From: a virus
Reading direction: 5' to 3' (one strand)
Length of the DNA: 32,352 nt
Virus genome (UHGV): UHGV-0176217
Shown here: positions 6,485 through 32,352 of the stretch, in pieces
Position numbering within the stretch: position 1 is the first letter of the stretch
How the letters are laid out: every line of letters starts with the position of its first letter
Notes under the pieces: generated by a model
What the model saw: only the letters and a program-made list of their open reading frames with translations
Database searches by the model: none
What the model was told of the DNA's origin: nothing
Translations under genes and position numbers: made by a program

Positions 6485-7816
6485 ATGGTGATTAATGAAG
6501 TTAGACGGATAGGTAGTGGCGGTTTTGGTAATGTTGATTTAGTGCAAGATGTCCTTAGCGGAAAGCAATTCGCTAGGAAAACATTTTCTATAAATCAAGC
6601 TCAACCGCTGCCTCCTGATTTGGCAGAGAATGTAAAAAAAAGATTTATAAGAGAGGCAAACGTACAGTATAGACTTACGCATAAAAATATTGTACCTGTC
6701 CTTTTTAAAGATCTAAATAGTAACCCTCCATCTTTCCTTATGCCAGTAGCAGCATCTAGCCTTGATAAAGATATTGCGCAAAGTAGAAACTTGAATGGAT
6801 TATTTTTAAGAGCAATAATGGATATTTTGTCTGGACTCGAAGAATTGCACACGTTGCAAATTTATCATCGTGATCTCAAACCACAAAATGTGCTTAGATT
6901 TGATTCAAGTGAAGGTCCATATTACGCTATTAGCGACTTTGGCCTGATGTCAGTAAAAGATACTCAAATTTCAGCACTAACCCATACAGGTATGAAAATG
7001 GGTTCTGATTACTACACCGCACCTGAAATTGTTTCAGATCTTAGAAAAGCTAGTATTGCTTCAGATATTTATTCTTTGGGGTGTATACTGCATGACTTTG
7101 TAGGCACGGATGAAAGAATTCCTTGTGGTGAAATTAATAATGATTCGAGCGCATATGCGCATATTTTACGGGTTTGTACTCGTAGAGATCCTTCAAGAAG
7201 ATTTCCAAGTGTTGCAGCATTAAGGGATGCAATTCTTAGTATTGATCCTTCTACAGTAATACATCTCTCTGCTGAGGTTGGAACATATACTACAGCATTA
7301 GATAGTGACGCCGGAATTAATGTTGAAACATGGAGGGAAATAATCAATTTCGTAGAGGATAATATTGGACAAGAAAACTCCAAGGTGATATTTCAGCGTC
7401 TAACTTTAAACAGGATTAATGAGATAATCGCTCATGATACCACGCTAGCTTGTCGTCTTGGTGAAGCATATGGTCGTTGGGTTGCGGATGGAGTATTTTC
7501 ATTCGAACAGTGTGATGGGATTTGCACTCGTCTCGAACAATTTTTACAACTTCACGATTTGAACTGTAAAGCCGAAATTATTATAGCTATGCTTCTTATG
7601 GGAACGTCGCATAATCGTTGGTATGTCGAGAGACGCTTCATGAGCGTGGCAGGGCACGACATGACTCCAGAACTGGCTAAAAGGCTTGCTTTGGAAATGA
7701 GCATACTTGAGGGTAGAATGTGTGCAGCGGTGAGTCATCTCCAAAGATCAATTGGTGCCACACCTGATATGCTTCATCCTGAACTTTTCGCAATGATACA
7801 AAGAGTATGCCATTGA
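6485..7816 (+). CDS. Eukaryotic-like (Hanks-type) Ser/Thr protein kinase with ~170 aa C-terminal domain of unknown function
   Basis: Gly loop GSGGFGNV; FARK lysine; conserved Glu (REANVQY); catalytic loop YHRDLKPQNVL; DFG (ISDFGLM); APE (YTAPEIV); DIYSLGCIL; AT-rich gene; RBS AAGGGG. Confidence 0.85.
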   Translation: MVINEVRRIGSGGFGNVDLVQDVLSGKQFARKTFSINQAQPLPPDLAENVKKRFIREANVQYRLTHKNIVPVLFKDLNSNPPSFLMPVAASSLDKDIAQSRNLNGLFLRAIMDILSGLEELHTLQIYHRDLKPQNVLRFDSSEGPYYAISDFGLMSVKDTQISALTHTGMKMGSDYYTAPEIVSDLRKASIASDIYSLGCILHDFVGTDERIPCGEINNDSSAYAHILRVCTRRDPSRRFPSVAALRDAILSIDPSTVIHLSAEVGTYTTALDSDAGINVETWREIINFVEDNIGQENSKVIFQRLTLNRINEIIAHDTTLACRLGEAYGRWVADGVFSFEQCDGICTRLEQFLQLHDLNCKAEIIIAMLLMGTSHNRWYVERRFMSVAGHDMTPELAKRLALEMSILEGRMCAAVSHLQRSIGATPDMLHPELFAMIQRVCH

Positions 7817-8517
7817 TTAATAAATTTGCTTACACATCTCCGGGACCTAGAAGCCACAACCAAGACTCTATCTTGGTTGAGATTTTACCCAGCGCTGATT
7901 TGTTATGTGGCGTTGCGGATGGTGTCGGCGGGAATTTGGGGGGAGAAACAGCCTCTCAATTAGCACTGGACATTATTGCTGCGGCCATGCGTTCGGATAG
8001 TAGCATCTCTCTTCTCGAAGCCATAACCCGAGCTGATGAAGCGATCAAAGATGCTGCTCAGAAAGATGGAAAATTGGCTGGAATGGCAAGTACTGTGACT
8101 GTAACAAAGCTTATCGGGAATAAATTGATAGGAGCCAATTGTGGAGATTCTCGGACTTATCTATTAAGAGGAAGTGGCGTCAAACAACTTTCCTATGATC
8201 ACAGTGAAGTAGCTCGTCTACTACGTGAAGGTAAGCTGACGAAAGAGACTGCAGTTGATTACCCTCGTAAGAACATTCTTGATAGTGCCCTTGGTGCACA
8301 CAAGCCTCTACAAGTCCATGAATTTGAATGTAATTTACAGATAGGTGATAGAATAGCTTTGCTATCTGACGGGGTTTCGTCAGTTGTGAGCAAAAAAGAT
8401 TTCCGAGATCTTTCAGTGAAATATAATTCGTTAAATGAGTATGGTGCTAGTGTAATAGAGCTTGTTGAGAGTAGAGAGACTAGGGATAATTATTCATTGA
8501 TTATTTTTGAAATTTAG
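7807..8517 (+). CDS. PP2C-family (PPM) Ser/Thr phosphatase
   Basis: Motifs SHNQDS, ADGVGG, CGDSRTYL, LLSDGVSS; start overlaps the kinase stop by 10 nt. Confidence 0.85.
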   Translation: MPLINKFAYTSPGPRSHNQDSILVEILPSADLLCGVADGVGGNLGGETASQLALDIIAAAMRSDSSISLLEAITRADEAIKDAAQKDGKLAGMASTVTVTKLIGNKLIGANCGDSRTYLLRGSGVKQLSYDHSEVARLLREGKLTKETAVDYPRKNILDSALGAHKPLQVHEFECNLQIGDRIALLSDGVSSVVSKKDFRDLSVKYNSLNEYGASVIELVESRETRDNYSLIIFEI

Positions 8518-16320: not shown

Positions 16321-16750
16321 CGCCGTACCACAGCTAAAAAACAACCCCGAAATGATGCGTATCTTTGCCGATGAGGGAAATATCGATGCGCGTCTCGCGG
16401 CCTCGCTGTCGCACGAAAAGAACTACACCCTGAATGTGATCGTCTGCGATTTTGTTGGCGACCCTGACCTGATTTTTGTGCCGGTGGCGGCATGGCTGCG
16501 AGAGAACCAGCCGGATATCTGCACGCTGGATGAGGGGCGCAAAAAGGGCTATCGATTCCAGATGGATTTAAACGACGGGGATAATGTTGATATCAGTATC
16601 AGCCTGCAACTGACCGAGCGCACCCTCGTCAGGGACGAAAACGGCGCGCTGCACGTTAGCTACGCGCCTGAGCCTCCATTACCCGAGCCGATGACGCGAC
16701 CGACTGAGCTGTATATCAATGGTGAGCTGGTGAGCAAATGGGATGAATGA
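16283..16750 (+). CDS. R: Tail completion protein R (P2 gpR-like)
   Basis: 155 aa; ...LNVIV.DF.GD.DL..VPV.AWLRENQPDI.T.DEG.KKG...PTELYINGELVSKWDE matches P2 R as recalled. Confidence 0.8.
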   Translation: MQKMKSLRQALTDAVPQLKNNPEMMRIFADEGNIDARLAASLSHEKNYTLNVIVCDFVGDPDLIFVPVAAWLRENQPDICTLDEGRKKGYRFQMDLNDGDNVDISISLQLTERTLVRDENGALHVSYAPEPPLPEPMTRPTELYINGELVSKWDE

Positions 16751-17189
16751 ATTTAAACCTTTTGATGACAAACTGGCGGGACTGATTGCGGCAATATCAC
16801 CGGCGGGTCGGCGCAAGCTGGCCGCTGAAATAGCAAAGCAAATGCGCAGATCGCAACAGCAACGCATCAAACAGCAAAAAGCGCCTGATGGCACGCCGTA
16901 TCAGGCGCGAAAACGCCAGCCGCTCAGAGCGAAGAAAGGGCGTATTAAGCGGACGATGTTTCAGAAGTTGCGAACGAACCGCTACATGAAAGCCAGAGGC
17001 CGCGATGATGCAGCGGTGGTCGAGTTTACCGGCAAGGTGCAACGCATTGCTCAGATTCATCAGCTCGGACTTAAAGACCGGCCAAACCCACATGCTCAGG
17101 ACGTGCAATACCCAGAACGGCAGTTGCTTGGTGTTGACTTTAGAGACAATTTGTTGATTGAAAAATTGGTTATTGAACATCTAAATTGA
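16743..17189 (+). CDS. S: Tail completion protein S (P2 gpS-like)
   Basis: 148 aa; start overlaps the R stop. Confidence 0.8.
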   Translation: MNEFKPFDDKLAGLIAAISPAGRRKLAAEIAKQMRRSQQQRIKQQKAPDGTPYQARKRQPLRAKKGRIKRTMFQKLRTNRYMKARGRDDAAVVEFTGKVQRIAQIHQLGLKDRPNPHAQDVQYPERQLLGVDFRDNLLIEKLVIEHLN

Positions 17190-17238
17190 CTATTTACGGT
17201 TGCAAGTCTCATAAGACGAATCCTAGCTTACCGACCTT

Positions 17239-17267
17239 TTGACCTTAATCATAAAAAATGGTAAATA
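17239..17267 (+). promoter_or_regulatory. Sigma70-like promoter of the DUF262/HEPN moron
   Basis: TTGACC (17239-17244), 17-nt spacer, TAAATA (17262-17267), ~60 bp upstream of the ATG at 17325. Confidence 0.45.
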
Positions 17268-17324
17268 TTGTTGTTGTCTGCTACCTCGTTGATTTTTTAA
17301 GCTTTTACTTACAAGGATTGAAGC

Positions 17325-18374
17325 ATGTCTAACGATGATAAAACATTGAATTTATTCCCCATAGATTATCCATTTGAGACTTTATGTTCTAGGATGAAGT
17401 CCAATCCCATCAAACTAAAACTGAATCCAGACTTTCAAAGAAAGTACAAATGGGATCAGGACGGATGGCTGCGATCTTCAAAATTCATTGAATCTTGTTT
17501 AATGCGTATTCCTCTTCCATCTTGTTACTTTGCAGAAGATGATAGCGGCAATCATATTGTAATTGATGGTGTTCAGCGATTAACCACAATACAGAAATTT
17601 TTTGATGACGAGTTCGCTTTGGAGGGAATGACTACATTTAAAGAGCTTGAAGGGAAAAAGTTTTCTGAATTAGGATCTCTACGTTCAGAGTTAGAGTCGA
17701 CAACAATAAGATGCATTGTTCTAAGAAAAGAAAATCCCAAAAAATTAATAAGAGAGATATTTTCTAGACTCAATCAGGGGGCAGTTAAACTTTCTGACCA
17801 AGAAATAAGACATGCGTTATATCCGGGAGGGTTTGATGAATTATTAGAAGAGTTAGGTAATATTGATGCCATTAAAAATTTTGGTTTGGCGGAAACAACT
17901 ACAGTAAAAAGAGATAGTCGTGAGCCAGACGAACAAGTTTTGCGTTTTTTTGCATTTTATGAAGATAACTTTTTTGATTACTTTGATAGCTCCTTGAAAG
18001 AATTCTTGGATGATCATATGGAAAAATTTTCAGACTTAAAAGATGATGAACTGAATATTATGAGGGAGAGATTCAAAACATCATTATCTAAGTGTGAAAA
18101 AATATTTGGTGAAGATGTATTTACAAACCCTACAGTTAGGAGAAAACGTAAAGGGTTAGTTCATTATGACATTTTAATGCCTACAATTGGCAAGTTAAAT
18201 GATGATATTGTAAATGAAAAGTCCGAACAAATACGGAATGCTTGGTTTACTCTTTGTTCAAGTGCTGAGTTCAAAAAAACTTTATCAGGTGGGCTACAGA
18301 ATAAGAGTTCGGTGATGAAGCGTAGGGCTAGTTGGGTGGCACTTCTTAAGGAAGTTATTGATGGAAAATACTGA
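17325..18374 (+). CDS. DUF262 (ParB-like NTPase/nuclease domain) protein lacking a fused C-terminal HNH/DUF1524 domain
   Basis: DUF262 signature ...NPDFQRKYKW.......FIESCLMRIPLPS.YFAED..G.HIVIDGVQRLTTIQKFF; AAGGA RBS; strongly AT-rich. Confidence 0.8.
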   Translation: MSNDDKTLNLFPIDYPFETLCSRMKSNPIKLKLNPDFQRKYKWDQDGWLRSSKFIESCLMRIPLPSCYFAEDDSGNHIVIDGVQRLTTIQKFFDDEFALEGMTTFKELEGKKFSELGSLRSELESTTIRCIVLRKENPKKLIREIFSRLNQGAVKLSDQEIRHALYPGGFDELLEELGNIDAIKNFGLAETTTVKRDSREPDEQVLRFFAFYEDNFFDYFDSSLKEFLDDHMEKFSDLKDDELNIMRERFKTSLSKCEKIFGEDVFTNPTVRRKRKGLVHYDILMPTIGKLNDDIVNEKSEQIRNAWFTLCSSAEFKKTLSGGLQNKSSVMKRRASWVALLKEVIDGKY

Positions 18375-18939
18375 ATACTATGATGGATATCGTTCATTAT
18401 TTTTATCCTTAAAAGAAATTATTAAGGAGACGGAGCAACAGGCTATCCTTGAGGAAAATGAATTCTTCAATAAGAACATTAATTTTTTTGTTAAATCGTA
18501 TCTTATTACACTCTGCACTTATTTAGAGTCGTATTTGACTGAGGTTGCAACATGGCACTGCGATACCATCAATCGCAGGCTTAAAGCAGCCTGCTTGCCA
18601 CACAATTTTTTGCTTTGGCGAGTCAAAAAAGATGTTAAAGATAAGGAGTTGAAATATATAGATGCTGATTTAAAGGTTGATAAAAGTGAGGTGTCGGATA
18701 GCCTATCTGGTAATCCTTACAAGACGATTAAGGCATTTTCTTATTTGGGTGTTAATCTTTTGAATTCGGCGGAATTTAATGCGAATAAGGATGTTGTGAA
18801 TGCAGTGGTTGTAAAGAGAAATAACATTATTCATCATAACGACAATGCAAATGATATTAGTCTCACTGACGTAAGTGGTTATGTAGATCTGTTTGTATCC
18901 TATATGGCCGCGATAGATAATATGGTTTGTGGAAAATAA
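18361..18939 (+). CDS. Partner protein with C-terminal R-x4-H (HEPN-like) motif; putative RNase effector
   Basis: ATG at 18361 overlaps the upstream stop by 14 nt, AAGGA RBS; motif KRNNIIHH near the C-terminus; AT-rich. Confidence 0.6.
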   Translation: MENTEYYDGYRSLFLSLKEIIKETEQQAILEENEFFNKNINFFVKSYLITLCTYLESYLTEVATWHCDTINRRLKAACLPHNFLLWRVKKDVKDKELKYIDADLKVDKSEVSDSLSGNPYKTIKAFSYLGVNLLNSAEFNANKDVVNAVVVKRNNIIHHNDNANDISLTDVSGYVDLFVSYMAAIDNMVCGK

Positions 18940-18953
18940 TGTTTTAATATTCG

Positions 18954-18980
18954 TGGGGCTGTTTGATAATTTAGCCCCAT
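18954..18980 (+). terminator. Possible terminator after the moron
   Basis: Stem TGGGGCT / AGCCCCA with 13-nt loop; weak T tract. Confidence 0.3.
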
Positions 18981-19202
18981 ATCTGCTTTGGTAAGAGTTC
19001 GGAAAATAATTTTATATCATGATGAAATGTCTATGAGATTTATTTCATTTCTAAGTTTTGCTATTTGATAAATCCTTTATGTGGCTCTCATTAATCTAAT
19101 GGGATGAATTATACTGATATTTTAAAGCTGATAATTGTTGTTTCATCTCCCATAAAACTCCACTTGATTGCCACTAGCCTTTCCAGTCGGCATCCTTTCC
19201 AC

Positions 19203-19844
19203 ATGAATAATTTAAATTCTTTACAGGAAATCGCTCGGGCGATCCGCAACCTTATCCGCACCGGCATTGTGACCGACGTCGACCCCGTCGAGGGGCTTTG
19301 TCGTGTACAGACCGGCGGGATGCAAACCACCTGGCTTAACTGGCTGACCTGCCGCGCCGGCCGCTCGCGGGTGTGGTGGGCTCCTTCTGTTGGCGAGCAG
19401 GTGCTCATTCTTGCCATTGGTGGCGAGCTGGACACAGCCTTTGTGCTGCCCGGCATTTTCTCTGATGACCATCCTGCGCCGTCGGCCTCGTCCGATGCGT
19501 TTCACGTCACTTTTCCTGACGGGGTGGTTATCGAGTACGAACCCGAAAACGGGGCGCTCACCGTATCCGGTATTAAAACCGCCGACGTTACCGCGTCGGA
19601 GTCCATTACCGCCATCGTGCCGGTGGTGCTGGTGAAAGCCGAAACCCGCATTACCCTCGATACTCCCGAGGTGGTGTGTACCAACAAGCTCATCACCGGC
19701 ACGCTCGAAGTGAAAAAAGGCGGGACGATGTCGGGGAACATCGAGCACACCGAAGGGAAATTTACCTCAAACGGCGTGCAGGTCGATGCCCACGATCATG
19801 GTGGCGTGGAGCCGGGCGGAAACTGGACGAAGGGGGTCAAATGA
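19203..19844 (+). CDS. V: Baseplate spike / assembly protein V (P2 gpV-like)
   Basis: 213 aa from ATG at 19203; position before W; stop overlaps the W start. Confidence 0.85.
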   Translation: MNNLNSLQEIARAIRNLIRTGIVTDVDPVEGLCRVQTGGMQTTWLNWLTCRAGRSRVWWAPSVGEQVLILAIGGELDTAFVLPGIFSDDHPAPSASSDAFHVTFPDGVVIEYEPENGALTVSGIKTADVTASESITAIVPVVLVKAETRITLDTPEVVCTNKLITGTLEVKKGGTMSGNIEHTEGKFTSNGVQVDAHDHGGVEPGGNWTKGVK

Positions 19845-20191
19845 CGGTGCGTTATCTGGGAATGAACAGCCAGACCGGCCTCAGTATTTCTGAAGTTGAG
19901 CACATCAGGCAAAGCGTGCGCGACATTCTGGTCACGCCAGTGGGCTCGCGCGTCATGCGCCGCGAATATGGCTCGCTGTTGTCTGCACTGATTGACCAGC
20001 CGCAGACCCCGGCGCTGCGTCTGCAGATTATGGCCGCGTGCTACTCCGCGATCCAGAGGTGGGAACCGCGCGTCAGTTTGTCGACCATCACCGTTGAACG
20101 CGGAGAGGATGACGGCGCGATGTACGTCGATATGACCGGCACGCGTTCGGCATCAGGCCAGCCTTTTTCTATCACCCTTCCACTGAGTTAA
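19841..20191 (+). CDS. W: Baseplate wedge protein W (gp25-like)
   Basis: 116 aa; ATGA overlap with V. Confidence 0.85.
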   Translation: MTVRYLGMNSQTGLSISEVEHIRQSVRDILVTPVGSRVMRREYGSLLSALIDQPQTPALRLQIMAACYSAIQRWEPRVSLSTITVERGEDDGAMYVDMTGTRSASGQPFSITLPLS

Positions 20192-20196
20192 ACGTT

Positions 20197-21105
20197 ATGG
20201 CTATTGTTGACCTGAGCCAGCTCGCCGCACCTGATGTTGTGGAAGAGTTGGATTATGAAACCATCCTGACAGAGCGAAAGGTGACGCTCGTCTCACTCTA
20301 TCCCGAAGAGCAACAGGACGCGGTAGCGCGTACGCTGACGCTTGAATCTGAGCCGATTGTGAAGCTGTTGCAGGAAAATGCTTATCGGGAGGTTATCTGG
20401 CGTCAGCGGGTGAATGAGTCGGCATGGGCGGTGATGCTGGCTTACGCTGCCGGTCATGACCTTGATAACCTCGGCGCAAATTACAATGTTGAGCGTCTCG
20501 TTATTACGCCTGCTGATGAGACCACGCTGCCGCCAACGCCTGCCGTCATGGAATCGGACACCGATTACCGTCTGCGAATTCAACAGGCTTTTGAGGGAAT
20601 GAGCGTGGCCGGGTCGACCGGTGCGTATCAGTTTCATGGCCGCAGTGCTGACGGGCGGGTCGCCGATATTTCTGTTATCAGCCCGCAGCCTGCCTGCGTG
20701 ACCGTGTCGGTACTGTCCCGGGAGAATAACGGCGCGGCATCCGGGGAACTGCTCGCCGTGGTGCGTAATGCTCTCAACGATGAGGATGTGAGGCCGGTTG
20801 CTGACCGCGTGACCGTGCAGTCGGCGGTCATTGTCGACTACACCATCGATGCCGCGCTTTATCTTTATCCCGGCCCCGAAAGCGAGCCGGTGCTCAGTGC
20901 GGCAAAAGCGAAGCTGCAGGCTTATATCAACGCGCAGCACCGGCTCGGGCGCGATATCCGCAAGTCTGCCATCTATGCCGCGCTTCACGTCGAGGGGGTG
21001 CAGCGTGTCGAACTTGTCGCGCCGGTCGCTGACATCGTACTCAATGAGACACAGGCGTCATATTGCACTGCTTACAGCGTAAACATCGGGGGCAACGATG
21101 AGTGA
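20197..21105 (+). CDS. J: Baseplate protein J (P2 gpJ-like)
   Basis: 302 aa, same length as P2 J; stop overlaps the I start. Confidence 0.85.
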   Translation: MAIVDLSQLAAPDVVEELDYETILTERKVTLVSLYPEEQQDAVARTLTLESEPIVKLLQENAYREVIWRQRVNESAWAVMLAYAAGHDLDNLGANYNVERLVITPADETTLPPTPAVMESDTDYRLRIQQAFEGMSVAGSTGAYQFHGRSADGRVADISVISPQPACVTVSVLSRENNGAASGELLAVVRNALNDEDVRPVADRVTVQSAVIVDYTIDAALYLYPGPESEPVLSAAKAKLQAYINAQHRLGRDIRKSAIYAALHVEGVQRVELVAPVADIVLNETQASYCTAYSVNIGGNDE

Positions 21106-21628
21106 TACTCGTCTGCTGCCGGTGGGCTCGTCGCCGCTTGAGGTGGCGGCGGCGCGCGCCTGCGCGGATATCGAAAATACGCCCGTCCCGCTGCGTCGTC
21201 TATGGAACCCTGACAACTGCCCCGCAAATCTGCTGCCGTGGCTGGCCTGGGCGTTTTCGGTTGATCGCTGGGATGAGAGCTGGCCGGAAGAAACCAAACG
21301 CGAGGTTATCCGCAGCACGTGGTTTATCCATGCGCATAAAGGGACGATAGGTGCGGTGCGTCGTGTGGTCGAGCCGCTCGGGTATCTGATTAACGTGACG
21401 GAGTGGTGGGAGACGAACGACCCCCCGGGCACGTTTCGCCTTGATATCGGCGTGCTGGAGACCGGTATCACCGAGGAAATGTATTACGAAATGGAAAGGC
21501 TGATTGCCGATGCAAAGCCAGCCAGCCGCCATCTTATTGGCCTGAATATTATCCAGGACATACCGGGTTATCTCTTCACCGGAGCCCTGACCTGGGACGG
21601 CGACATCATCACGGTTTACCCCGGATAA
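21098..21628 (+). CDS. I: Baseplate protein I (P2 gpI-like)
   Basis: 176 aa, same length as P2 I. Confidence 0.85.
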
Positions 21629-21639
21629 GTGAGAACACA

Positions 21640-23325
21640 ATGACAGTGAAATATAAAACCGTTATCACCCGAGCCGGTGCGGAAAAACTGGCGGCGGCGA
21701 CGCTCCCGAACGGGAAGAAAGTCAATTTTGCTGTGATGGCCGTCGGGGACGGCGGCGGAAAACTGCCCGAACCGGACGCCAGCCAGACAAAACTCGTCAA
21801 TGAGGTCTGGCGTCATGTCCTGAACAAAATCAGCCAGGACAAAAAACATAAAAATTATGTCGTGGCGGAGCTGGTGATCCCCCCGGAGACCGGCGGTTTC
21901 TGGCTGCGTGAAATGGGGCTTTACGATGACACCGGCACGCTGATTGCGGTCGGCAATATGGCCGAAAGCTACAAACCCGAGCTGGCGGAAGGATCAGGTC
22001 GTGCGCAGACGCTGCGTATGGTGATCATGGTGAGTGATATCGACACGGTCGAGTTGTCCATCGATACCACGCTGGTGATGGCGACGCAGGATTATGTCGA
22101 CGACAAACTCGCAGAGCATGAGCAGTCCCGCCGCCATCCTGACGCCACGCTGAAAGAAAAAGGGTTCACGCAGTTAAGCAGTGCGACCGACAGCACGTCT
22201 GAGGCGCTCGCCGCGACACCGAAAGCGGTTAAGGCGGCGTATGACCTTGCGAAAGGTAAATACTCGGCTCAGGACGCGACCACGGCGCAGAAAGGGATTG
22301 TTCAGCTCAGTAGCGCCATCGACAGCGTGTCTGAGACGCTCGCCGCAACGCCAAAAGCGGTGAAAGCGGCGAATGATAATGCTGATGGCCGCGTTCCTTC
22401 CTCGCGCAAAATTAACGGACACTCCCTGAATGCTGACACCAGTGTCACCTCGCAGGATATTTTCGACGACCAGGCTATTGGGCTGATAACGGAGGATTTA
22501 GACACCCTTAAAACGCCGGGTATTTACTTTCAGCCAGCGAATTCTAATACCTCAGCCGCCAGACATTACCCTGAAAATAACGCCGGGACGCTGGTCATTT
22601 ATAAAAATGCCGGAGTGACTCAGGTATACCGGGTTTATAACAGCTCCCGGAGCTACTCGCGCAGCCAGTATTCAACAGGCGCATGGACACCGTGGACGCC
22701 TGATGATGTTTTTCCGGTAGGCGCTCCCGTTGCGTGGCCGTCTGACAGTGTTCCTGCTGGCTATGCCGTCATGCAGGGACAAACTTTTGATAAAGCCGCG
22801 TATCCGCTGCTTGCTGTGGTGTACCCATCGGGTGTTATTCCTGATATGCGGGGCTGGACAATCAAAGGTAAACCCGCAAGTGGGCGCGCTATTTTGTCTC
22901 AGGAGCAGGACGGCATTAAATCGCACGCCCACGGTGCCAGCGCATCGAGCACCGATTTAGGGACGAAAACCACCAGTGCTTTTGACCACGGAACGAAAAC
23001 CACCACGACCTTTGACTACGGGACAAAAACCACTAATGCAACCGGCAACCATGCGCACACTTTTACCGTACACCGGGGAGATCAGGCCGGGGGACAGGCC
23101 GCCGACGGTAACGAAATAGCGACGGGAACGAAAACAACATCAACTGCAGGTAATCACGCGCATACCGTGGCGATTGGTGCCCACAATCATAATGTCGGGA
23201 TTGGCGCACACTCGCACTCCGTTGCTATTGGCGCACACGGTCACACCATTACGATCGCCGCGTCGGGTAATGCAGAAAACACCATCAAAAACATCGCCTT
23301 TAACTATATCGTGAGACTCGCATAA
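21640..23325 (+). CDS. H: Tail fibre protein H (mosaic)
   Basis: 561 aa; conserved N-terminus; two copies of the tail-fibre repeat [20 protein letters not shown]; C-terminal Gly/Thr/His-rich tip (GTKTT x3, GNHAHT x2, IGAHxH x3). Confidence 0.85.
22171..22371 (+). repeat. Two copies of the in-frame phage tail-fibre repeat inside H
   Basis: cagttaagcagtgcgaccgacagcacgtctgaggcgctcgccgcgacaccgaaagcggttaaggcggcg at about 22171-22240 versus cagctcagtagcgccatcgacagcgtgtctgagacgctcgccgcaacgccaaaagcggtgaaagcggcg at about 22303-22371. Confidence 0.6.
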
Positions 23326-23903
23326 TGACGTTTAAAATGACCGGAGAAAGCCGGACTATCACTGTGTATAACTTTCGTGCAGACACCTGTGAATTTATTG
23401 GAAAAGGTGACGCCCTGATACCGGCATTTACCGGATTGCCCGCCTGCTGCACCAGTGAAAAGCCCCCGGAAACCCGAGACGGATTTATTCCGGTTTATGA
23501 CACTGAAAATGGTTGCTGGGCTATCACTGAAGACCACCGGGGGGAGGTTGTCTATGACACCGAAACAGGTCATGAGAGGGAGATAACCGAGCCGGGTCAG
23601 TATCCGGCAGGAACAACACCGGTTGTGCCGGAAAACCCGTGGCAGAAATGGGATGGTAAAACATGGGTTGATGATGCTGATGCTGCACGTAATGCATTGA
23701 CAGAGGCTGCGAAAAACAACAAAAACAGGCTTCTTAAACAGGCCAATACTGCGGTTGCGACATTACAGGACTCCGTTGATCTGGAGATGGCAACCGACGA
23801 TGAAAAAACGCACCTCATTGCATGGAAAAAATACCGTGTTTTACTGAGCCGCATCCAGCCGGAGGATGCTCCGGATATTGAATGGCCGCCGCTGCCAGTC
23901 TGA
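23325..23903 (+). CDS. G: Tail fibre assembly chaperone (P2 gpG-like)
   Basis: 192 aa; immediately after H with overlapping stop/start; conserved C-terminus ...W.KYR..L.R......PDIEWP..P. Confidence 0.8.
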   Translation: MTFKMTGESRTITVYNFRADTCEFIGKGDALIPAFTGLPACCTSEKPPETRDGFIPVYDTENGCWAITEDHRGEVVYDTETGHEREITEPGQYPAGTTPVVPENPWQKWDGKTWVDDADAARNALTEAAKNNKNRLLKQANTAVATLQDSVDLEMATDDEKTHLIAWKKYRVLLSRIQPEDAPDIEWPPLPV

Positions 23904-23913
23904 TCCGACATCT

Positions 23914-23940
23914 GGCGGGCAGTTGCCCGCCTTTTCCTTT
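23914..23940 (+). terminator. Intrinsic terminator after G
   Basis: Stem GGCGGGC / GCCCGCC with 4-nt loop, then TTTTCCTTT. Confidence 0.55.
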
Positions 23941-23946
23941 CCCGTC

Positions 23947-23975
23947 GTTGTGTCAGACCTTAGCCAACCCTGACA
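23947..23975. promoter_or_regulatory. Candidate Ogr-dependent late promoter element upstream of FI
   Basis: GTTGTGTCAG (23947-23956) and dyad TGTCAG ... CTGACA (23951-23975), ~90 bp upstream of the FI ATG; same 10-mer as upstream of O. Confidence 0.3.
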
Positions 23976-24038
23976 AATAGCCCGCACCCGCCACACAACA
24001 GAAAATATCACTCACCCCTTAACCACGGAGTTAAACGG

Positions 24039-25232
24039 ATGAGTGACTATCATCACGGCGTGCAGGTCATCGAGATTAACGATGGCGTGCGCACCATTTC
24101 CACCGTTTCGACGGCCATCATCGGCATGGTCTGCACGGCCAGCGATGCTGACGAAAAAACATTTCCCCTCAATGAGCCGGTGCTCATTACGAACGTGCAG
24201 AGCGCTATCGGTAAGGCCGGTAAACAGGGCACGCTGTCGGCGTCCCTGCAGGCTATCGCTGACCAGTGCAAGCCGGTCATCGTGGCCGTGCGTGTGGCCG
24301 AAGGTATTGAAGATCCGGAGAACCCCGAGGAGGCGCACAAACAGACCATTTCTAATATCATCGGCACCACCGACGAAAACGGCAAATATACCGGGCTGAA
24401 AGCCCTGCTGACGGCGAAAACCGTCACCGGCGTTAAGCCACGGATTCTCGGCGTGCCGGGGCTGGATTCACAGGAGGTGGCGACCGCACTCGCGTCCACC
24501 TGTCAGAGCCTGCGCGCCTTTGGCTATGTCAGCGCATGGGGCTGTAAAACCATTTCCGAGGCCATCGACTACCGCGAGAATTTCAGCCAGCGTGAGCTGA
24601 TGGTCATCTTCCCTGATTTTCTGGCATGGGACACCACGGCGAACGCGACCGCGACAGCCTGGGCGACGGCGCGCGCGCTCGGCCTGCGTGCCAAAATCGA
24701 CCAGACGGTCGGCTGGCATAAAACCCTGTCTAACGTTGGCGTTAACGGTGTGACCGGCGTCAGTGCCTCAGTATCGTGGGATTTGCAGGAACCGGCGACC
24801 GACGCCAACCTGCTGAATCAGGCCGGTGTCACCACGCTTATCCGCAATGATGGTTTCAAGTTTTGGGGAAACCGTACCTGCTCGGATGATCCGCTTTTCC
24901 TGTTTGAGAACTACACCCGCACCGCGCAGGTACTGGCCGACACGATGGCGGAGGCGCACGCGTGGGCGATGGATAAACCCATTACCCCGACCCTCATTCG
25001 CGACATCGTTTCCGGTATCAATGCCAAATTCCGCGAGCTGAAAACCAGTGGTTATATCGTTGACGGCTTCTGCTGGTACGACCCGGAGTCGAACGACACC
25101 GCGACCCTGAAAGTGGGGAAACTGTATATCGATTACGACTATACCCCCGTCCCGCCGCTGGAAAACCTGACCCTGCGCCAGCGCATCACCGATACCTATC
25201 TGGCGAACCTGTCGGACTCGGTCAACAGCTAA
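24039..25232 (+). CDS. FI: Tail sheath protein (P2 gpFI-like)
   Basis: 397 aa; position and size. Confidence 0.9.
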   Translation: MSDYHHGVQVIEINDGVRTISTVSTAIIGMVCTASDADEKTFPLNEPVLITNVQSAIGKAGKQGTLSASLQAIADQCKPVIVAVRVAEGIEDPENPEEAHKQTISNIIGTTDENGKYTGLKALLTAKTVTGVKPRILGVPGLDSQEVATALASTCQSLRAFGYVSAWGCKTISEAIDYRENFSQRELMVIFPDFLAWDTTANATATAWATARALGLRAKIDQTVGWHKTLSNVGVNGVTGVSASVSWDLQEPATDANLLNQAGVTTLIRNDGFKFWGNRTCSDDPLFLFENYTRTAQVLADTMAEAHAWAMDKPITPTLIRDIVSGINAKFRELKTSGYIVDGFCWYDPESNDTATLKVGKLYIDYDYTPVPPLENLTLRQRITDTYLANLSDSVNS

Positions 25233-25244
25233 GGAGCTCTGAGC

Positions 25245-25763
25245 ATGGCGTTACCCCGCAAACTGAAATACCTGAATATGTTCAACGATGGCCTCAGCTA
25301 TATGGGCGTTGTTGAATCCGTCACCCTGCCAAAACTGACCCGCAAGCTGGAGAAATATCGCGGCGGCGGGATGCCGGGGGCGGTGTCGGTTGACCTTGGC
25401 CTCGATGACGATGCGCTGTCGCTTGAGTGGACGCTCGGCGGTCTGCCTGACATTGAATTGTGGGCGCAGTACGCCTCACCGGGTGCTGACAGCGTGCCGC
25501 TGCGTTTTACCGGCTCTTATCAGCGTGACGACACCGGCGCGATTTCTGCCGTCGAGGTGGTGATGCGTGGCCGTCATAAAGAATACGACGGCGGTGAAAA
25601 CAAGCAGGGCGAAAGCGGTACAACCAAAATGGCGACCGAGTGCGCCTATTACCAGCTCACGATCGACGGCAAAGAAGTCATCGAGATTGACGTGATCAAC
25701 ATGGTGCTGAAAGTCGACGGTGTCGACCGTATGGCAGAGCACCGCAAGGCGATTGGCCTGTAA
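25245..25763 (+). CDS. FII: Tail tube protein (P2 gpFII-like)
   Basis: 172 aa, same length as P2 FII. Confidence 0.9.
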   Translation: MALPRKLKYLNMFNDGLSYMGVVESVTLPKLTRKLEKYRGGGMPGAVSVDLGLDDDALSLEWTLGGLPDIELWAQYASPGADSVPLRFTGSYQRDDTGAISAVEVVMRGRHKEYDGGENKQGESGTTKMATECAYYQLTIDGKEVIEIDVINMVLKVDGVDRMAEHRKAIGL

Positions 25764-25817
25764 TCCTTCAACCGGTCAGTGAGGCTGGCCGGTCATTTAC
25801 CCTGATGAGAAATTCGC

Positions 25818-26132
25818 ATGAAAAATATCAATGAGACTGCTGTTGCTGACACTGAGAACGTCAATCCGAATGTCGTTATTTTTGACACCCCGCTGATGCG
25901 CGGTGAGCAGAAAGTTGAGCAGGTCACCTTAACCAAACCGAATGCGGGAACCCTGCGCGGGGTGTCGCTGGCGTCGCTGGCAAATTCCGACGTTGATGCG
26001 CTGATTAAGGTGCTGCCGCGCATGACATATCCGGCACTGACCGAGCACGAGCTCGCGCGTCTGGATGCGTCAGACCTGATTTCACTAGCCGGTAAGGTGG
26101 TCGGTTTTTTGTCACCAGCTTCGGGTCGCTGA
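25818..26132 (+). CDS. E: Tail assembly chaperone E (zero-frame product)
   Basis: 104-aa ORF ending just after the slippery heptamer; position between FII and T. Confidence 0.8.
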   Translation: MKNINETAVADTENVNPNVVIFDTPLMRGEQKVEQVTLTKPNAGTLRGVSLASLANSDVDALIKVLPRMTYPALTEHELARLDASDLISLAGKVVGFLSPASGR

Positions 26133-26287
26133 CCTTCCCGGAAAAACTGTCGGTCGATGACCTGATGGCGGATATTGCGGTGATCTTCCACTGGCCGCCA
26201 TCAGAGCTAAATTCCCTGAGTGTGACCGAGCTCCTGACATGGCGCGATAAGGCGCTGCAACGAAGCGGAAGCCATCATGAGCAATAA
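25818..26287 (+). CDS. E': E+E' fusion made by programmed -1 ribosomal frameshift
   Basis: The -1 frame entered at T-TTT-TTG (26105-26111) stays open to a TAA at 26285-26287, overlapping the T start. Confidence 0.65.
26105..26111 (+). promoter_or_regulatory. -1 programmed frameshift slippery site TTTTTTG
   Basis: Heptamer GGT TTT TTG positioned so a -1 slip continues into an open 58-codon extension. Confidence 0.65.
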
Positions 26288-28718
26288 CGTCAGAATCGAG
26301 GTGCTGCTGAACGCAGTTGACCGGGCAAGCCGCCCGCTTAAAGCGATTCAGAACGCCAGCAAATCCCTGTCTGGTGATATCCGCAATTCACAAAAAAGCC
26401 TGCGCGAACTTAATGCGCAGGCGTCCCGTATTGACGGATTCCGCAAAGCCAGCGCCCAGCTTGCCGTGACCGGTCATTCGCTTGAGAAAGCGAAACAGGA
26501 AGCGCAAGCCCTTGCCACACAATTTAAAAACACCGAGCGCCCGACGCGTGCGCAGGCGCAGGTGCTTGAATCGGCAAAGCGTGCCGCCAACGGGCTGCAG
26601 ACGAAATACAACAGCCTCACTGAGTCTGTTAAGCGCCAGCAACGTGAACTCGGTGCAGTCGGTATTAATACCCGTAATCTGGCAAATGATGAGCGGGGGC
26701 TTAAATCGCGCATCAGTGAGACTACCGCGCAGCTTAATCGGCAGCGTGAGGCACTGGCGAAAGTCAGCGCACAACAGGCGAAGTTAAGCCGGGTGAAAGC
26801 GCGGTATCAGGCCGGTAAATCACTGGCCGGAAACGCGGCGGCGGCTGGCGCAGCCGGTGTTGGTATTGCGACGGCGGGAACCCTCGCCGGGGTTAAGCTG
26901 CTGACGCCTGGTTATGAATTTGCACAGAAAAACTCAGAGCTGCAGGCCGTGCTCGGTGTCGACAAACAGTCGCCTGAAATGCAGGCGCTGCGTAAACAGG
27001 CGCGCCAGCTCGGTGATAATACCGCTGCCTCTGCCGATGATGCGGCGGGTGCGCAGATTATCATTGCCAAAAGCGGCGGCGATGCGGCGGCCATTCAGGC
27101 GGCGACGCCGGTCACACTGAATATGGCGCTGTCGAACAAGCGCACGATGGAAGAAAACGCTGCGCTGCTGACAGGCATGAAATCTGCTTTTCAGCTCTCT
27201 AACGATAAAGTCGCGCATATTGGTGATGTTCTCTCGATGACGATGAACAAAACCGCCGCCGACTTTGATGGAATGAGTGATGCGCTGACCTATGCCGCGC
27301 CAGTGGCGAAAAATGCCGGGGTAAGTATCGAAGAAACCACCGCAATGGTGGGGGCGCTGCACGATTCCAAAATCACCGGCTCGATGGCGGGTACAGGGAG
27401 CCGTGCCGTTCTGAGTCGCCTGCAGGCGCCAACCGGTAAAGCGTACGACGCCATCAAAGAGCTCGGTATTAAAACGTCAGATAGCAAAGGCAATACGCGC
27501 CCGATATTTTCCATCCTGAAAGAAATGCAGCGCAGTTTTGAGAAAAACAATCTCGGAACGGGGCAGAAATCCGAATACATGAAAACCATTTTCGGTGAAG
27601 AGGCCAGCTCGGCGGCCGCCGTGCTGATGGCCGCCGCAACAAGCGGCAAGCTCGACCAGCTCACCGCCGCGTTTAAAGCCTCAGACGGTAAGACTGAGGA
27701 ACTGGTTAAGGTTATGCAGGATAACCTCGGCGGCGACTTTAAAGAGTTTCAGTCAGCCTATGAGGCGGTCGGCACTGACCTGTTTGATCAGCAGGAGGGC
27801 TCACTGCGAAAGCTGACGCAGACGGCCACGCAATATGTGCTCAGGCTCGACGGCTGGATCCAGAAAAATAAAGGGCTGGCGACCACCCTCGGCGTGGTGG
27901 TTGGTGGTGCGCTGGCGCTGATCGGTGTAATGGGCGGGATTGGCCTTGTCGCATGGCCGGTGGTGATGGGGATTAATGCCATCATTGCGGCGGCTGGCGT
28001 GCTCGGTGTGGTTTTCAGTACGGTTGGCGGCGCGATTGTCACGGCCATTGGCGCAATCAGCCTGCCGGTGCTGGCGGTAGCCGGTGCAGTGGTGGCCGGT
28101 GCATTGCTGATCCGCAAATACTGGGAGCCGCTCGGTGCATTCTTCTCGGGCGTGGTGGAGGGACTGAAAGCCGCCTTTGCACCGGTGGGGGACATGTTTA
28201 CCCCGCTCGCGCCGGTGTTTGACGCCATCGCTGAAAAGCTGGGTGTCGTCTGCCAGTGGTTTAAAGACCTGCTTGCGCCGGTGAAAACCACGCAGGACAC
28301 GCTCTCCAGTTGCAAAAATGTCGGCGTTACTTTTGGTCAGGCGCTGGCTGATGCGCTGATGATGCCGCTCAAGATGTTTAACAGCCTGAGCGGCAAGGTC
28401 GGCTGGCTACTGGAAAAACTCGGCGTTATCAAAAAAGAATCCAGCGACCTCGACCAGACCGCAGCGAAAGCGAATAAAGCGTCCCTGAATGGCGGGTATA
28501 TCCTTGCGACCGCTGGATATGGCGGGTATCAGGCGTATCAGCCGGTCACTGCACCTGCAGGCCGGTCTTATATCGACCAGAGCAAAAGCGAATACAACAT
28601 CAATCTGCAGGGCGGGGTCGCGCCGGGCAGTGACCTTGACCGCCAGCTCCGTGACGCCGTCGACAAACTTGACCGCGAGAAACGTGCGCGCCAGCGATCC
28701 AGTATGAGACTCGACTGA
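26277..28718 (+). CDS. T: Tail tape measure protein (P2 gpT-like)
   Basis: 813 aa; Ala/Gly-rich hydrophobic central segments; position. Confidence 0.9.
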   Translation: MSNNVRIEVLLNAVDRASRPLKAIQNASKSLSGDIRNSQKSLRELNAQASRIDGFRKASAQLAVTGHSLEKAKQEAQALATQFKNTERPTRAQAQVLESAKRAANGLQTKYNSLTESVKRQQRELGAVGINTRNLANDERGLKSRISETTAQLNRQREALAKVSAQQAKLSRVKARYQAGKSLAGNAAAAGAAGVGIATAGTLAGVKLLTPGYEFAQKNSELQAVLGVDKQSPEMQALRKQARQLGDNTAASADDAAGAQIIIAKSGGDAAAIQAATPVTLNMALSNKRTMEENAALLTGMKSAFQLSNDKVAHIGDVLSMTMNKTAADFDGMSDALTYAAPVAKNAGVSIEETTAMVGALHDSKITGSMAGTGSRAVLSRLQAPTGKAYDAIKELGIKTSDSKGNTRPIFSILKEMQRSFEKNNLGTGQKSEYMKTIFGEEASSAAAVLMAAATSGKLDQLTAAFKASDGKTEELVKVMQDNLGGDFKEFQSAYEAVGTDLFDQQEGSLRKLTQTATQYVLRLDGWIQKNKGLATTLGVVVGGALALIGVMGGIGLVAWPVVMGINAIIAAAGVLGVVFSTVGGAIVTAIGAISLPVLAVAGAVVAGALLIRKYWEPLGAFFSGVVEGLKAAFAPVGDMFTPLAPVFDAIAEKLGVVCQWFKDLLAPVKTTQDTLSSCKNVGVTFGQALADALMMPLKMFNSLSGKVGWLLEKLGVIKKESSDLDQTAAKANKASLNGGYILATAGYGGYQAYQPVTAPAGRSYIDQSKSEYNINLQGGVAPGSDLDRQLRDAVDKLDREKRARQRSSMRLD

Positions 28719-31104: not shown

Positions 31105-32352
31105 GTGCGCCGGGCATGGCGCGTAGCGCCGTGACTGGCGCTGTTCTTCAACTGTGGTGGCTGAAGAACGACTAAGAGGTGAAAGTCCTCCACACACCCG
31201 GTGAGGGGAAGTGTTAGCGGAAGGCAAGGGTGTTCATCGCGAGGTGAAATCTGAAGGAAGCCGGATGCAAAATGCTGGCCTGACGAACAGGAAGCGGTTA
31301 AGGCGGCGCAGCGGGGTAAGGTGGCATACATCACCAAAGCCCGATACTCACACGGAACGCTGTAACGTAGAGCCGACAGGCATAAGCAGGAAAGTCGCGC
31401 GAATTACCCCGGGAGAACTGCCGTCCTGCCAGTGTGCTACCGGCGTCGTAAGGTGCCGGGATGGGGCGGCAGAAGTCAGCCGACGCCGTAGTAGTGCTGC
31501 AAAACCGGCAGCATGAAGGGCCGAACATGATTAACCGTGATTAGGACATCCGAACCCGATGATGATTAATGAAGCACAAGCGCAGGCAACTGCGGCCAGC
31601 GGCAGAGGAGACGGACGGTATCCGTCAGGGCTGCATGATGGCGCTGAAATCAGCACGGCGGCGGGTGGGCAAACGAAAGCGGAAGTGCCGCTGACGATGG
31701 AAGCGGTGATAACGAGAGAAAACCTGATGCTGGCTTATCAGCGCGTGGTGGAAAACAAAGGCGCGGCGGGGGTGGATAACCTCAGCGTGGCGGAGTTGAA
31801 ACCGTGGCTGAAGAAGAACTGGCGCAGTGTCAGGCAGGCATTGATTGACGGAAACTACCAGCCGCGGGCAATACGCCGGATGGATATCCCGAAGCCGGAT
31901 GGCGGCGTGAGAACCTTAGGCATCCCGACGGTGGTGGACAGGCTTATCCAGCAGGCGATTGCGCAGCAGTTAAGTGCCATCGTGGACAAAAGCTTCTCAG
32001 ACTCCAGCTACGGCTTCCGGCCGGGGCGCAACGCATGGCAGGCGGTGCAACAGGCACAGCGTTACATACGGGGCGGCAAACGGTGGGTGGTGGATATGGA
32101 TCTGGAGAAGTTCTTTGACCGGGTGGATCACAGGCTCCTGATGACGCGTCTGGCCAGAACGATAAAGGACAGGCGGGCATGCCGCAGGGCGGCCCGCTGT
32201 CGCCGTTACTGTCGAACATCCTGCTGGATGAACTGGATAAAGAACTGGAGCGTCGTTGACACAGCTTCTGCCGCTACGCAGACGACTGCAACATCAACGT
32301 AAGCAGCCGGAAAGCGGGCGACCATCTGCTGAAGAACATCAGGGCGTTCGTG
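31105..32352 (+). mobile_element. Group II intron, 5' part (ribozyme domains then intron-encoded protein), truncated by the window edge
   Basis: Starts GTGCG a few nt after the terminator T-run; ~450 nt of GC-rich structured non-coding sequence, then the RT ORF. Confidence 0.6.
31559..32352 (+). pseudogene. Group II intron reverse transcriptase/maturase, disrupted and partial
   Basis: RT motifs ...ENLMLAYQRVVENKGAAGVDN..., PKPDGGVRTLGIPTVVDRLIQQA, YGFRPGRNAWQA, then a frame change near 32170-32180 (next frame reads MPQGGPLSPLLSNILLDELDKELERR), an in-frame TGA at 32257-32259, then HSFCRYADDCNINV... Confidence 0.65.

Follow-up and report, generated by a model that had tools for sequence, protein, structure and literature searches.

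A DUF262–HEPN gene pair at the S–V junction of a P2-like prophage as a candidate anti-phage module of the PD-T4-2 type

PD-T4-2 is an anti-phage system of Escherichia coli ECOR65 that was obtained by functional selection and is listed as 'DUF262, HEPN' with a size of 1,540 bp (Vassallo et al. 2022; PMC9519451; accessions RCO39066.1 and QOYX01000002:338334-339873 in its supplement). The cloned system, under its native promoter, blocks phage T4, and deleting it from ECOR65 restores T4 plaquing; T4, the selecting phage, has modified DNA. HHpred assigned the first PD-T4-2 protein to PF03235 and the second to PF18735 (RiboL-PSP-HEPN, 97.8% probability; PMC9519451). Here, we analysed a two-gene cassette of the same layout, gene A (DUF262) followed by gene B (HEPN), in the UHGV virus genome UHGV-0176217, a stretch of 32,352 nucleotides referred to below as the window. 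The window represents a P2-like prophage, with 99.9% identity over 32,177 bases to the one located between yegR and yegQ in E. coli KV7. We conclude, with a probability of about 0.6, that the A-B cassette is a self-contained anti-phage module of two genes, carried by a prophage and similar in type to PD-T4-2.

Other described systems share one half of this design. A 2013 table by Anantharaman et al. lists 'Ribo L-PSP-HEPN ... operon with ParB', and the authors noted that HEPN proteins with an Rx4-6H motif are typically ribonucleases (RNases; PMC3710099). Reviews group PD-T4-2, Menshen and Dazbog as DUF262 systems without a DUF1524 domain (PMC10952713, PMC12065111). Menshen consists of NsnA, NsnB and NsnC (Millman 2022; Li et al. 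2025, PMC12065111), where NsnB is an ABC-type ATPase and NsnC combines an inactive PIN domain with a toxin. In SspE and in GmrSD/BrxU, the DUF262 domain couples recognition of a DNA feature to the nucleotide-dependent activation of an attached nuclease (PMC12065111, PMC10952713).

Genes A and B and their closest described relatives

The two genes of the cassette are:

17325..18374, plus strand: gene A, a 349-residue DUF262 (ParB/Srx-like NTPase-type) protein with a helical C-terminal domain, NsnA-like and without a nuclease domain
18361..18939, plus strand: gene B, a 192-residue RiboL-PSP-type HEPN protein and predicted RNase, with AAGGAAG at 18348-18354

Protein A matched the Pfam family GmrSD_N/DUF262 (PF03235) over residues 21-166 (E = 4.1e-23; 83 bits against a cut-off of 33.2). 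No other Pfam family was found at E ≤ 1, including DUF1524 and HNH domains, and the protein ends at residue 349; a reading made from the sequence alone (the sequence-only reading) had described A in just these terms, as a DUF262 protein lacking the fused nuclease. The motifs that define DUF262, QRxxxW, DGxQR and FxxxN (PMC12065111), are present as QRKYKW (38-43), DGVQR (81-85) and FSRLN (146-150) and are invariant or nearly so in the family. The C-terminal domain has a fold without a convincing structural match.

Gene B can start at TTG 18358 or at ATG 18361. RefSeq uses the ATG, which yields the 14-nucleotide overlap with A (18361-18374) that the sequence-only reading had described. Its product is a nearly full-length member of HEPN_RiboL-PSP (PF18735; E = 9.1e-18, 65.3 bits against a gathering cut-off of 28.4, model positions 3-190 of 191). 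The block KRNNIIHHND, which holds the Rx4H motif as R153-NNII-H158, was invariant in 36 sequences, including relatives down to 44% identity. The AlphaFold model of B is confident (predicted local distance difference test score, pLDDT, of 91.4) and predicts an all-alpha HEPN fold, in keeping with the earlier assignment of the C-terminal motif to the HEPN RNases. From its family and the intact Rx4H motif, B is predicted to be an RNase. A search of PDB chain sequences found nothing for the A or B family, and tblastn of B against GenBank phages gave no match.

Like PD-T4-2, the cassette consists of two adjacent, co-oriented genes in E. coli, a DUF262 gene and then a small RiboL-PSP-like HEPN gene, with no DUF1524 nuclease, ATPase or methylase; the total sizes are similar (1615 bp for the A-B pair, 1540 bp for PD-T4-2). 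Protein A matched the PADLOC model PD-T4-2_A (PDLC04027) over nearly its full length (E = 9.5e-43, 144.6 bits, residues 23-334 on model positions 45-354 of 363). The locus also resembles the family of Anantharaman et al. in that B, a full-length PF18735 member, lies beside a gene of the ParB superfamily (DUF262). Their description, in contrast, is purely computational, carries no phenotype and also covers fusions to L-PSP endoRNases, which are absent from the A-B cassette.

Four other DUF262+HEPN pairs share the gene order of the cassette: gp44/gp43 of Peduovirus P24B2 (L002), gp38/gp39 of the Klebsiella phage (Reipivirus) ST16-OXA48phi5.4 (L003), and pairs on IncX1 plasmids (L007) and on K. 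aerogenes pC9_001 (L008). Their slots are the old/tin region, a tail-fibre region and plasmid rep regions; on the IncX1 plasmids of E. coli and Salmonella the pair directly follows the replication initiator gene. The A proteins of these pairs are 25-36% identical to A, and the A proteins of the pairs examined are mutually 24-36% identical. Their B proteins (180-261 residues) match PF18735 and/or PF18737 and retain a C-terminal Rx4-5H motif, but could not be aligned with B by BLASTP (best E 0.005 over 60 residues), and these HEPN halves matched no PADLOC model. The four pairs have the wrong sizes for PD-T4-2 and gave no higher PD-T4-2_A scores. Judged by these sequences, the HEPN partner evidently diverges very fast, and the narrow PD-T4-2_B model of PADLOC therefore says little about kinship.

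By sequence and architecture we place the cassette, as a diverged member, in the DUF262 + RiboL-PSP-type-HEPN class that PD-T4-2 typifies; it is a known kind of system and not a new one. The sequence-only reading had taken it for an undescribed module. This part of its proposal does not stand, given that PD-T4-2 is a validated DUF262+HEPN pair (PMC9519451) and that the link between such HEPN proteins and ParB operons was tabulated in 2013 (PMC3710099). Its suggestion of a two-component defence role is, in contrast, the one we retain as the best reading, with the PD-T4-2 architecture as precedent and a strict linkage between A and B.

Menshen is the other system to which A is close. Protein A is NsnA-like along its whole length (PADLOC NsnA, E = 6.6e-80, model positions 51-383 of 385), with the three DUF262 motifs and the helical C-terminal domain. 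Unlike in Menshen, neither NsnB (AAA_15 + DUF3696) nor NsnC adjoins A in the window or in the homologous neighbourhoods examined; the partner of A is the HEPN gene directly 3' of it, followed by phage gene V. The cassette is not Menshen, since the adjacent NsnB and NsnC are missing, and it is not of the GmrSD type, since DUF1524 is missing. A sibling prophage in E. coli WCHEC005784, with the same attachment site and the same cassette, encodes an NsnB-like ATPase (DUF3696; NsnB 5.2e-55, PDC-M55A 6.5e-46) in P2 hotspot 1 (L042 5609-8280), together with a weakly PDC-M55B-like protein. This ATPase has no NsnA next to it, lies about 10 kb from gene A and does not occur in the window. We considered that A might require such an ATPase in trans, as in Menshen, and rejected this: hotspot 1 of the window holds a kinase and a phosphatase, and in the other taxa examined A and B occur as a pair by themselves.

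The DUF262 domain is common to GmrSD, BrxU and SspE (PMC10952713), and ParB-fold domains have been counted among the endoDNase domains of restriction-modification systems (PMC3710099). A could thus belong to a type IV-restriction-like system in which the ParB-fold protein itself binds and cuts or nicks modified phage DNA while B serves as an accessory or back-up RNase. The long structural alignments of the A model, which extend only to BrxU (7p9k_A) and to a DUF262 protein of a DndI system, are weak matches in the same direction, and PD-T4-2 was selected on T4, a phage with modified DNA. However, cutting in the characterised GmrSD, BrxU and SspE proteins is performed by the DUF1524 His-Me domain, which A lacks; A is also shorter, with 349 residues against about 580-790 (BrxU 7p9k_A and the PADLOC SspE models), and its partner is an RNase-type protein in trans. 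Moreover, B is not dispensable, because its Rx4H motif is invariant and under purifying selection and the gene is never absent. We consider the type IV explanation unlikely.

The ParB-superfamily fold of DUF262 is likewise the sole support for a role of A as a ParB-type partition or segregation protein acting on a nearby centromere, a possibility that the sequence-only reading had itself raised against its proposal. Positions 16900-19400 hold no iterated repeats or arrays beyond short two-copy matches; no ParA and no Pfam match to a ParB helix-turn-helix domain were found, and the element is an integrated prophage. A partition role is effectively refuted.

Linkage, distribution and selection

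The cassette occurred in 30 of 5,426 complete E. coli genomes, at ≥99% identity in all of them and annotated as 'DUF262 domain-containing protein | HEPN domain-containing protein'. A distant blastn search of the same genomes found nothing beyond these 30 near-identical copies. Two diverged viral metagenome contigs retain the cassette between the tail-completion gene S and the baseplate gene V (identities of 94% for A, 90% for B, 76% for S and 87% for V). In a 186-like prophage of Yersinia enterocolitica, a copy with A 88% and B 79% identical adjoins the integrase instead of lying between S and V.

For a wider view of the linkage, we scanned a collection with one genome per species with a profile of B and obtained 26 loci, of which one was cut by a contig end. 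A homologue of A lay immediately 5' of B on the same strand in all 25 informative loci. The single interrupted A gene belonged to a Competibacter metagenome-assembled genome (L033). The hosts were Gamma-, Beta- and Deltaproteobacteria, Cyanobacteria, Bacteroidota, Firmicutes, Planctomycetes and Verrucomicrobia (seven or more phyla), and the A-B neighbourhoods examined varied from locus to locus, with no conserved third gene among them. Elsewhere, A-B homologues lie in islands with toxin-antitoxin genes or with a reverse transcriptase plus an ATPase. The latter arrangement is found in a Janthinobacterium-related metagenome contig (L015 1653-3943), where a reverse transcriptase (RVT_1) and an AAA-type ATPase precede the DUF262+HEPN homologues directly on the 5' side, a gene set that suggests a small defence island.

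The ratio of nonsynonymous to synonymous substitution rates (dN/dS) was 0.05-0.09 for both genes, and these sequence comparisons indicate that A and B are under purifying selection. The B subfamily is small and sharply bounded: at E ≤ 0.001, 151 cluster representatives were found among 1.84 billion (about 150 clusters at 50% identity).

A toxin-antitoxin module would also display tight translational coupling and strict pairing. In such an addiction module, A would restrain the HEPN toxin B, and its main role would be to stabilise the prophage or island rather than to exclude phages. The closest structural matches of B are HEPN toxins of toxin-antitoxin systems (5yep_B, 7ae2_A), and one homologous locus sits among ParE/ParD-like and other antitoxin genes. 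A costly cassette would also fit what is seen in E. coli 5CRE51 (L050), one of the 30 carriers, where an IS5-family element, ISKpn26, has inserted at the extreme 5' end of A (equivalent to about 17330-17360) and parts A from its promoter-like element; at this locus RefSeq gives a DUF262 protein that is slightly shorter, and B is intact. On the other hand, the partner of B is not the minimal nucleotidyltransferase (MNT) antitoxin that usually accompanies HEPN toxins, but a DUF262 protein. With 349 residues and invariant nucleotide-pocket motifs, A looks like an enzyme and unlike an antitoxin, and PD-T4-2, which has the same architecture, has been demonstrated to defend. Addiction as the main role is in our view decidedly unlikely, although toxin-antitoxin behaviour and abortive defence are not mutually exclusive.

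Anatomy of the cassette and its cargo slot

The remaining features of the locus are:

17132..19129, no strand: variable cargo segment at the S-V junction, which takes in the last ~58 nucleotides of S; homology to three related prophages ends at 17131
17239..17267, plus strand: promoter-like element, TTGACC (17239-17244), a 17-nucleotide spacer, TG (17259-17260) and TAAATA (17262-17267)
17313..17317, plus strand: Shine-Dalgarno-like AAGGA, 7 nucleotides before the ATG of A
18953..18980, plus strand: hairpin 3' of B, with a 9-bp stem and a 10-nucleotide loop (minimum free energy of -18.1 kcal/mol for an 81-nucleotide stretch, z -1.6)
19135..19202, plus strand: conserved block just 5' of V, kept in four prophage variants whatever the cargo; phage backbone, outside the cassette

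The cassette is flanked by S (16743-17189; Pfam Phage_tail_S, 1e-35) and V (19203-19844, RefSeq). As read from the sequence alone, it is richer in AT than the tail genes around it: the S-V gap has a GC content of 34.3% against 53.6% in the remaining window, and across 17150-19250, an AT-rich block of ~2 kb, the GC fraction is 0.31-0.38, compared with 0.52-0.63 in the flanks. Neither the cassette nor its spacers contained an Rfam family, a tandem array or a plausible small open reading frame; no other reading frame of ≥40 codons lies on the coding strand inside the cassette, and small ones in the spacers were without support.

The promoter-like element is conserved in three genomic contexts, including a diverged viral contig and the Yersinia prophage. 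In blastn, the match to the Yersinia copy sets in at 17237, 2 nucleotides before the -35 box, and the sequence further upstream is unrelated. The two copies share the -35 box, the length of the spacer, the TG-n-TAAAT segment and the leader, including its ribosome-binding site, and the block CTTTTACTTACAAGGATTGA around the Shine-Dalgarno sequence of A is invariant in the three contexts. AAGGA-type ribosome-binding sites precede both A and B. On this comparative basis, the element at 17239-17267 is a putative promoter.

A hairpin also follows B in three other loci (L046, L009 and L048); L012 and L014 have no evident hairpin at this place. The stem of the Yersinia copy (L009) reads GGAGCC/GGCTCC where the window has GGGGCT/AGCCCC, which amounts to two compensatory pair changes. 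The hairpin is probably a weak terminator or stabiliser at the end of the cassette. Since homology to the Yersinia copy begins at ~17237 and the conserved hairpin with its compensatory changes ends at ~18980, we place the likely mobile unit between these points, so that it includes both the promoter-like element and the hairpin; this interval, about 17237-18980, is a footprint and not a transcript map. The deviant composition, the absence from related phages and the presence of its own promoter-like element and hairpin support the view of the cassette as an autonomous moron.

Three related E. coli P2-like prophages carry other cargo at the same place. Their R and S genes are 85-92% and their V genes 84-92% identical to the window at the nucleotide level, and their homology to it ends at 17131, within the 3' end of S, and resumes at 19130-19135, ~70 nucleotides before V. 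In all four prophage variants the cargo has a GC content of 0.33-0.37. The three alternative cargo genes encode proteins of 328 residues (SFE8; L004 4715-5701, plus strand), 543 residues (OkiPb01676; L005 4527-6158, minus strand) and 309 residues (EC11; L006 4479-5408, minus strand), which are mutually unrelated and without a significant match in Pfam or PADLOC; all three are candidate moron or defence genes.

At this junction P2 has, in order, S, the terminator of the O operon, the nonessential orf30, the Ogr activator site and V, so the slot is the gap that separates two late operons. P2 itself carries orf30 alone here, the small moron of which the sequence-only reading spoke, and the S-V (orf30) slot is one of three moron regions recognised in P2-like phages (PMC6823313). 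The block at 19135..19202 is, by its position, probably the late V-operon promoter region, since P2 has the Ogr activator site and the start of the V operon there.

Genes A and B point in the same direction as the late genes, and no terminator turned up between S and A. The pair might thus be read through from the late O operon, remain silent in the lysogen and serve the prophage's own life cycle, for example by shutting off host RNA or timing late development. Yet related prophages swap in unrelated genes at this site, some of them on the opposite strand, and P2 orf30 is annotated there as nonessential. The A-B pair is also found outside prophages, in chromosomal contexts of distant phyla, and the promoter-like element moves with the cassette. 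A life-cycle role is therefore highly improbable.

Hotspot 1 of the window, between the replication endonuclease and portal genes, encodes a Ser/Thr kinase (6485-7816, plus strand) and an overlapping PP2C phosphatase (7807-8517, plus strand), according to the RefSeq annotation of the KV7 prophage. The kinase matched the PADLOC models PD-T4-6 (6.7e-32) and mad6 (4.2e-33) and the phosphatase none; the two may form a kinase-phosphatase variant of PD-T4-6 defence. At the right end of the window (~31727-32352), beyond an ogr-like regulator gene, the KV7 annotation has a disrupted group II intron reverse transcriptase/maturase (ltrA pseudogene), and a short indel separates the window from KV7 in the same interval.

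A sliding comparison with the WCHEC005784 prophage, the one other carrier prophage compared, showed the tail block 16977-28200 to be 99-100% identical between the two, and the block from the capsid and lysis genes to R and S to be ~93% identical. A mosaic recombination breakpoint is located at ~16977, in the 3' part of S, and the block extends to ~28200. At first the cassette seemed to exceed both flanks in conservation (99.7% versus 94.2%); given this mosaic structure, the idea of an isolated, recently transferred island was dropped.

Proposed action and significance

Anti-phage defence of the PD-T4-2 type is our preferred reading of the cassette for several reasons. One is that it behaves as mobile cargo, lying between S and V in E. 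coli prophages and viral contigs, beside the integrase in Yersinia and in islands elsewhere. Another is that related prophages hold unrelated, AT-rich cargo at the same junction, a recognised moron region. A further one is the combination of the PD-T4-2 precedent with invariant motifs, strict linkage and low dN/dS, and with the PD-T4-6-like kinase of the same prophage, which is consistent with a defence-laden prophage. The domain identities, the intact motifs, the predicted HEPN fold, the linkage across phyla, the purifying selection, the moron anatomy and the location in a cargo hotspot are shown by the present analysis. T4 defence has been demonstrated for PD-T4-2 only, and it is by analogy that we infer defence by the A-B pair; which protein is the sensor, the RNase activity and its target, abortive as opposed to direct immunity and the use of the promoter are parts of the proposal set out below.

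Several points weigh against this reading. We found no mechanism for PD-T4-2 in the literature searched, and the homology to it holds at the level of architecture and Pfam family. PADLOC, which had been named as a check, recognised gene A, but with a higher score on NsnA (267 bits) than on PD-T4-2_A (145 bits), and it matched no model to B at E ≤ 1; unlike the second gene of PD-T4-2, B and its 35 relatives (36 sequences) remained unmatched by PD-T4-2_B even at E ≤ 10. Structure prediction gave the HEPN fold for B, but in the model of A the DUF262 domain has low confidence (most of residues 1-136 have a pLDDT <50), and the matches to known structures, BrxU among them, are weak. Across the loci of the linkage survey, A is more conserved (48-69% identity) than B (36-53%), whereas it is usually the sensor that evolves fast and the effector that is conserved; a simple model of that kind leaves the reversal unexplained.

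The regulatory elements of the cassette add to these points. A promoter of the form TTGACC-N17-TAAATA and a downstream hairpin had been claimed for the cassette, and both exist as conserved elements. However, a sigma-70 consensus scan misses the former (position 6 of the -35 box is not T), with 6 promoter-like sites in the region against 8.6 +/- 3.2 in shuffles, i.e. not above expectation. Likewise, a terminator scan does not call the hairpin, which has no T-run and is weak by energy. We retain the two elements on comparative evidence alone, the consensus scans being unsupportive.

Because DUF262 domains and HEPN RNases offer precedents for sensing and for RNA cleavage, and because the two genes are translationally coupled and never separated, we propose that A is the sensor and B the effector. 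The flanking late operons being silent in the lysogen, cargo that acts there would presumably need a promoter of its own, and the cassette would be transcribed from its promoter-like element, with B translationally coupled to A. As sensor or switch, A would recognise a feature of incoming phage DNA or of its replication; it would do so with a ParB/Srx-like nucleotide-binding domain, which has the DGxQR pocket, and a helical domain like those for which DNA binding has been proposed in NsnA, SspE and GmrSD. Nucleotide binding or hydrolysis may then drive a conformational change by which A activates or releases B. With its intact Rx4H motif, B would cleave RNA and bring phage production to a halt; the infected cell would probably be sacrificed, as in abortive infection.

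A bolder version of this proposal is doubtful. The sharply delimited subfamily could be a mechanistically distinct, DNA-sensing and RNA-degrading abortive system, in which A, unusually conserved across phyla, acts as a nucleotide-gated DNA switch, similar to a ParB clamp, that licenses a fast-evolving HEPN RNase. In that case it would be the effector and not the sensor that diversifies, for instance to escape phage-encoded RNase inhibitors, and P2-like phages would have a third defence hotspot at the S-V (orf30) junction, one missed by the defence-finder models now in use.

These findings leave the present understanding of phage defence as it is. Their value is practical and concerns the annotation of defence systems and a tractable subfamily for work on mechanism. 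The PADLOC models used here catch the DUF262 half and miss the HEPN half, so a widespread pair, present in 30 of 5426 E. coli genomes and in at least seven phyla, would go unreported as a system. To the DUF262+HEPN class, of which PD-T4-2 is the only validated example, the cassette adds a well-delimited and strongly conserved subfamily with identified invariant residues. Finally, S-V (orf30), the third known moron slot of P2-like phages, carries defence-type cargo and is a further place to look for defence genes.

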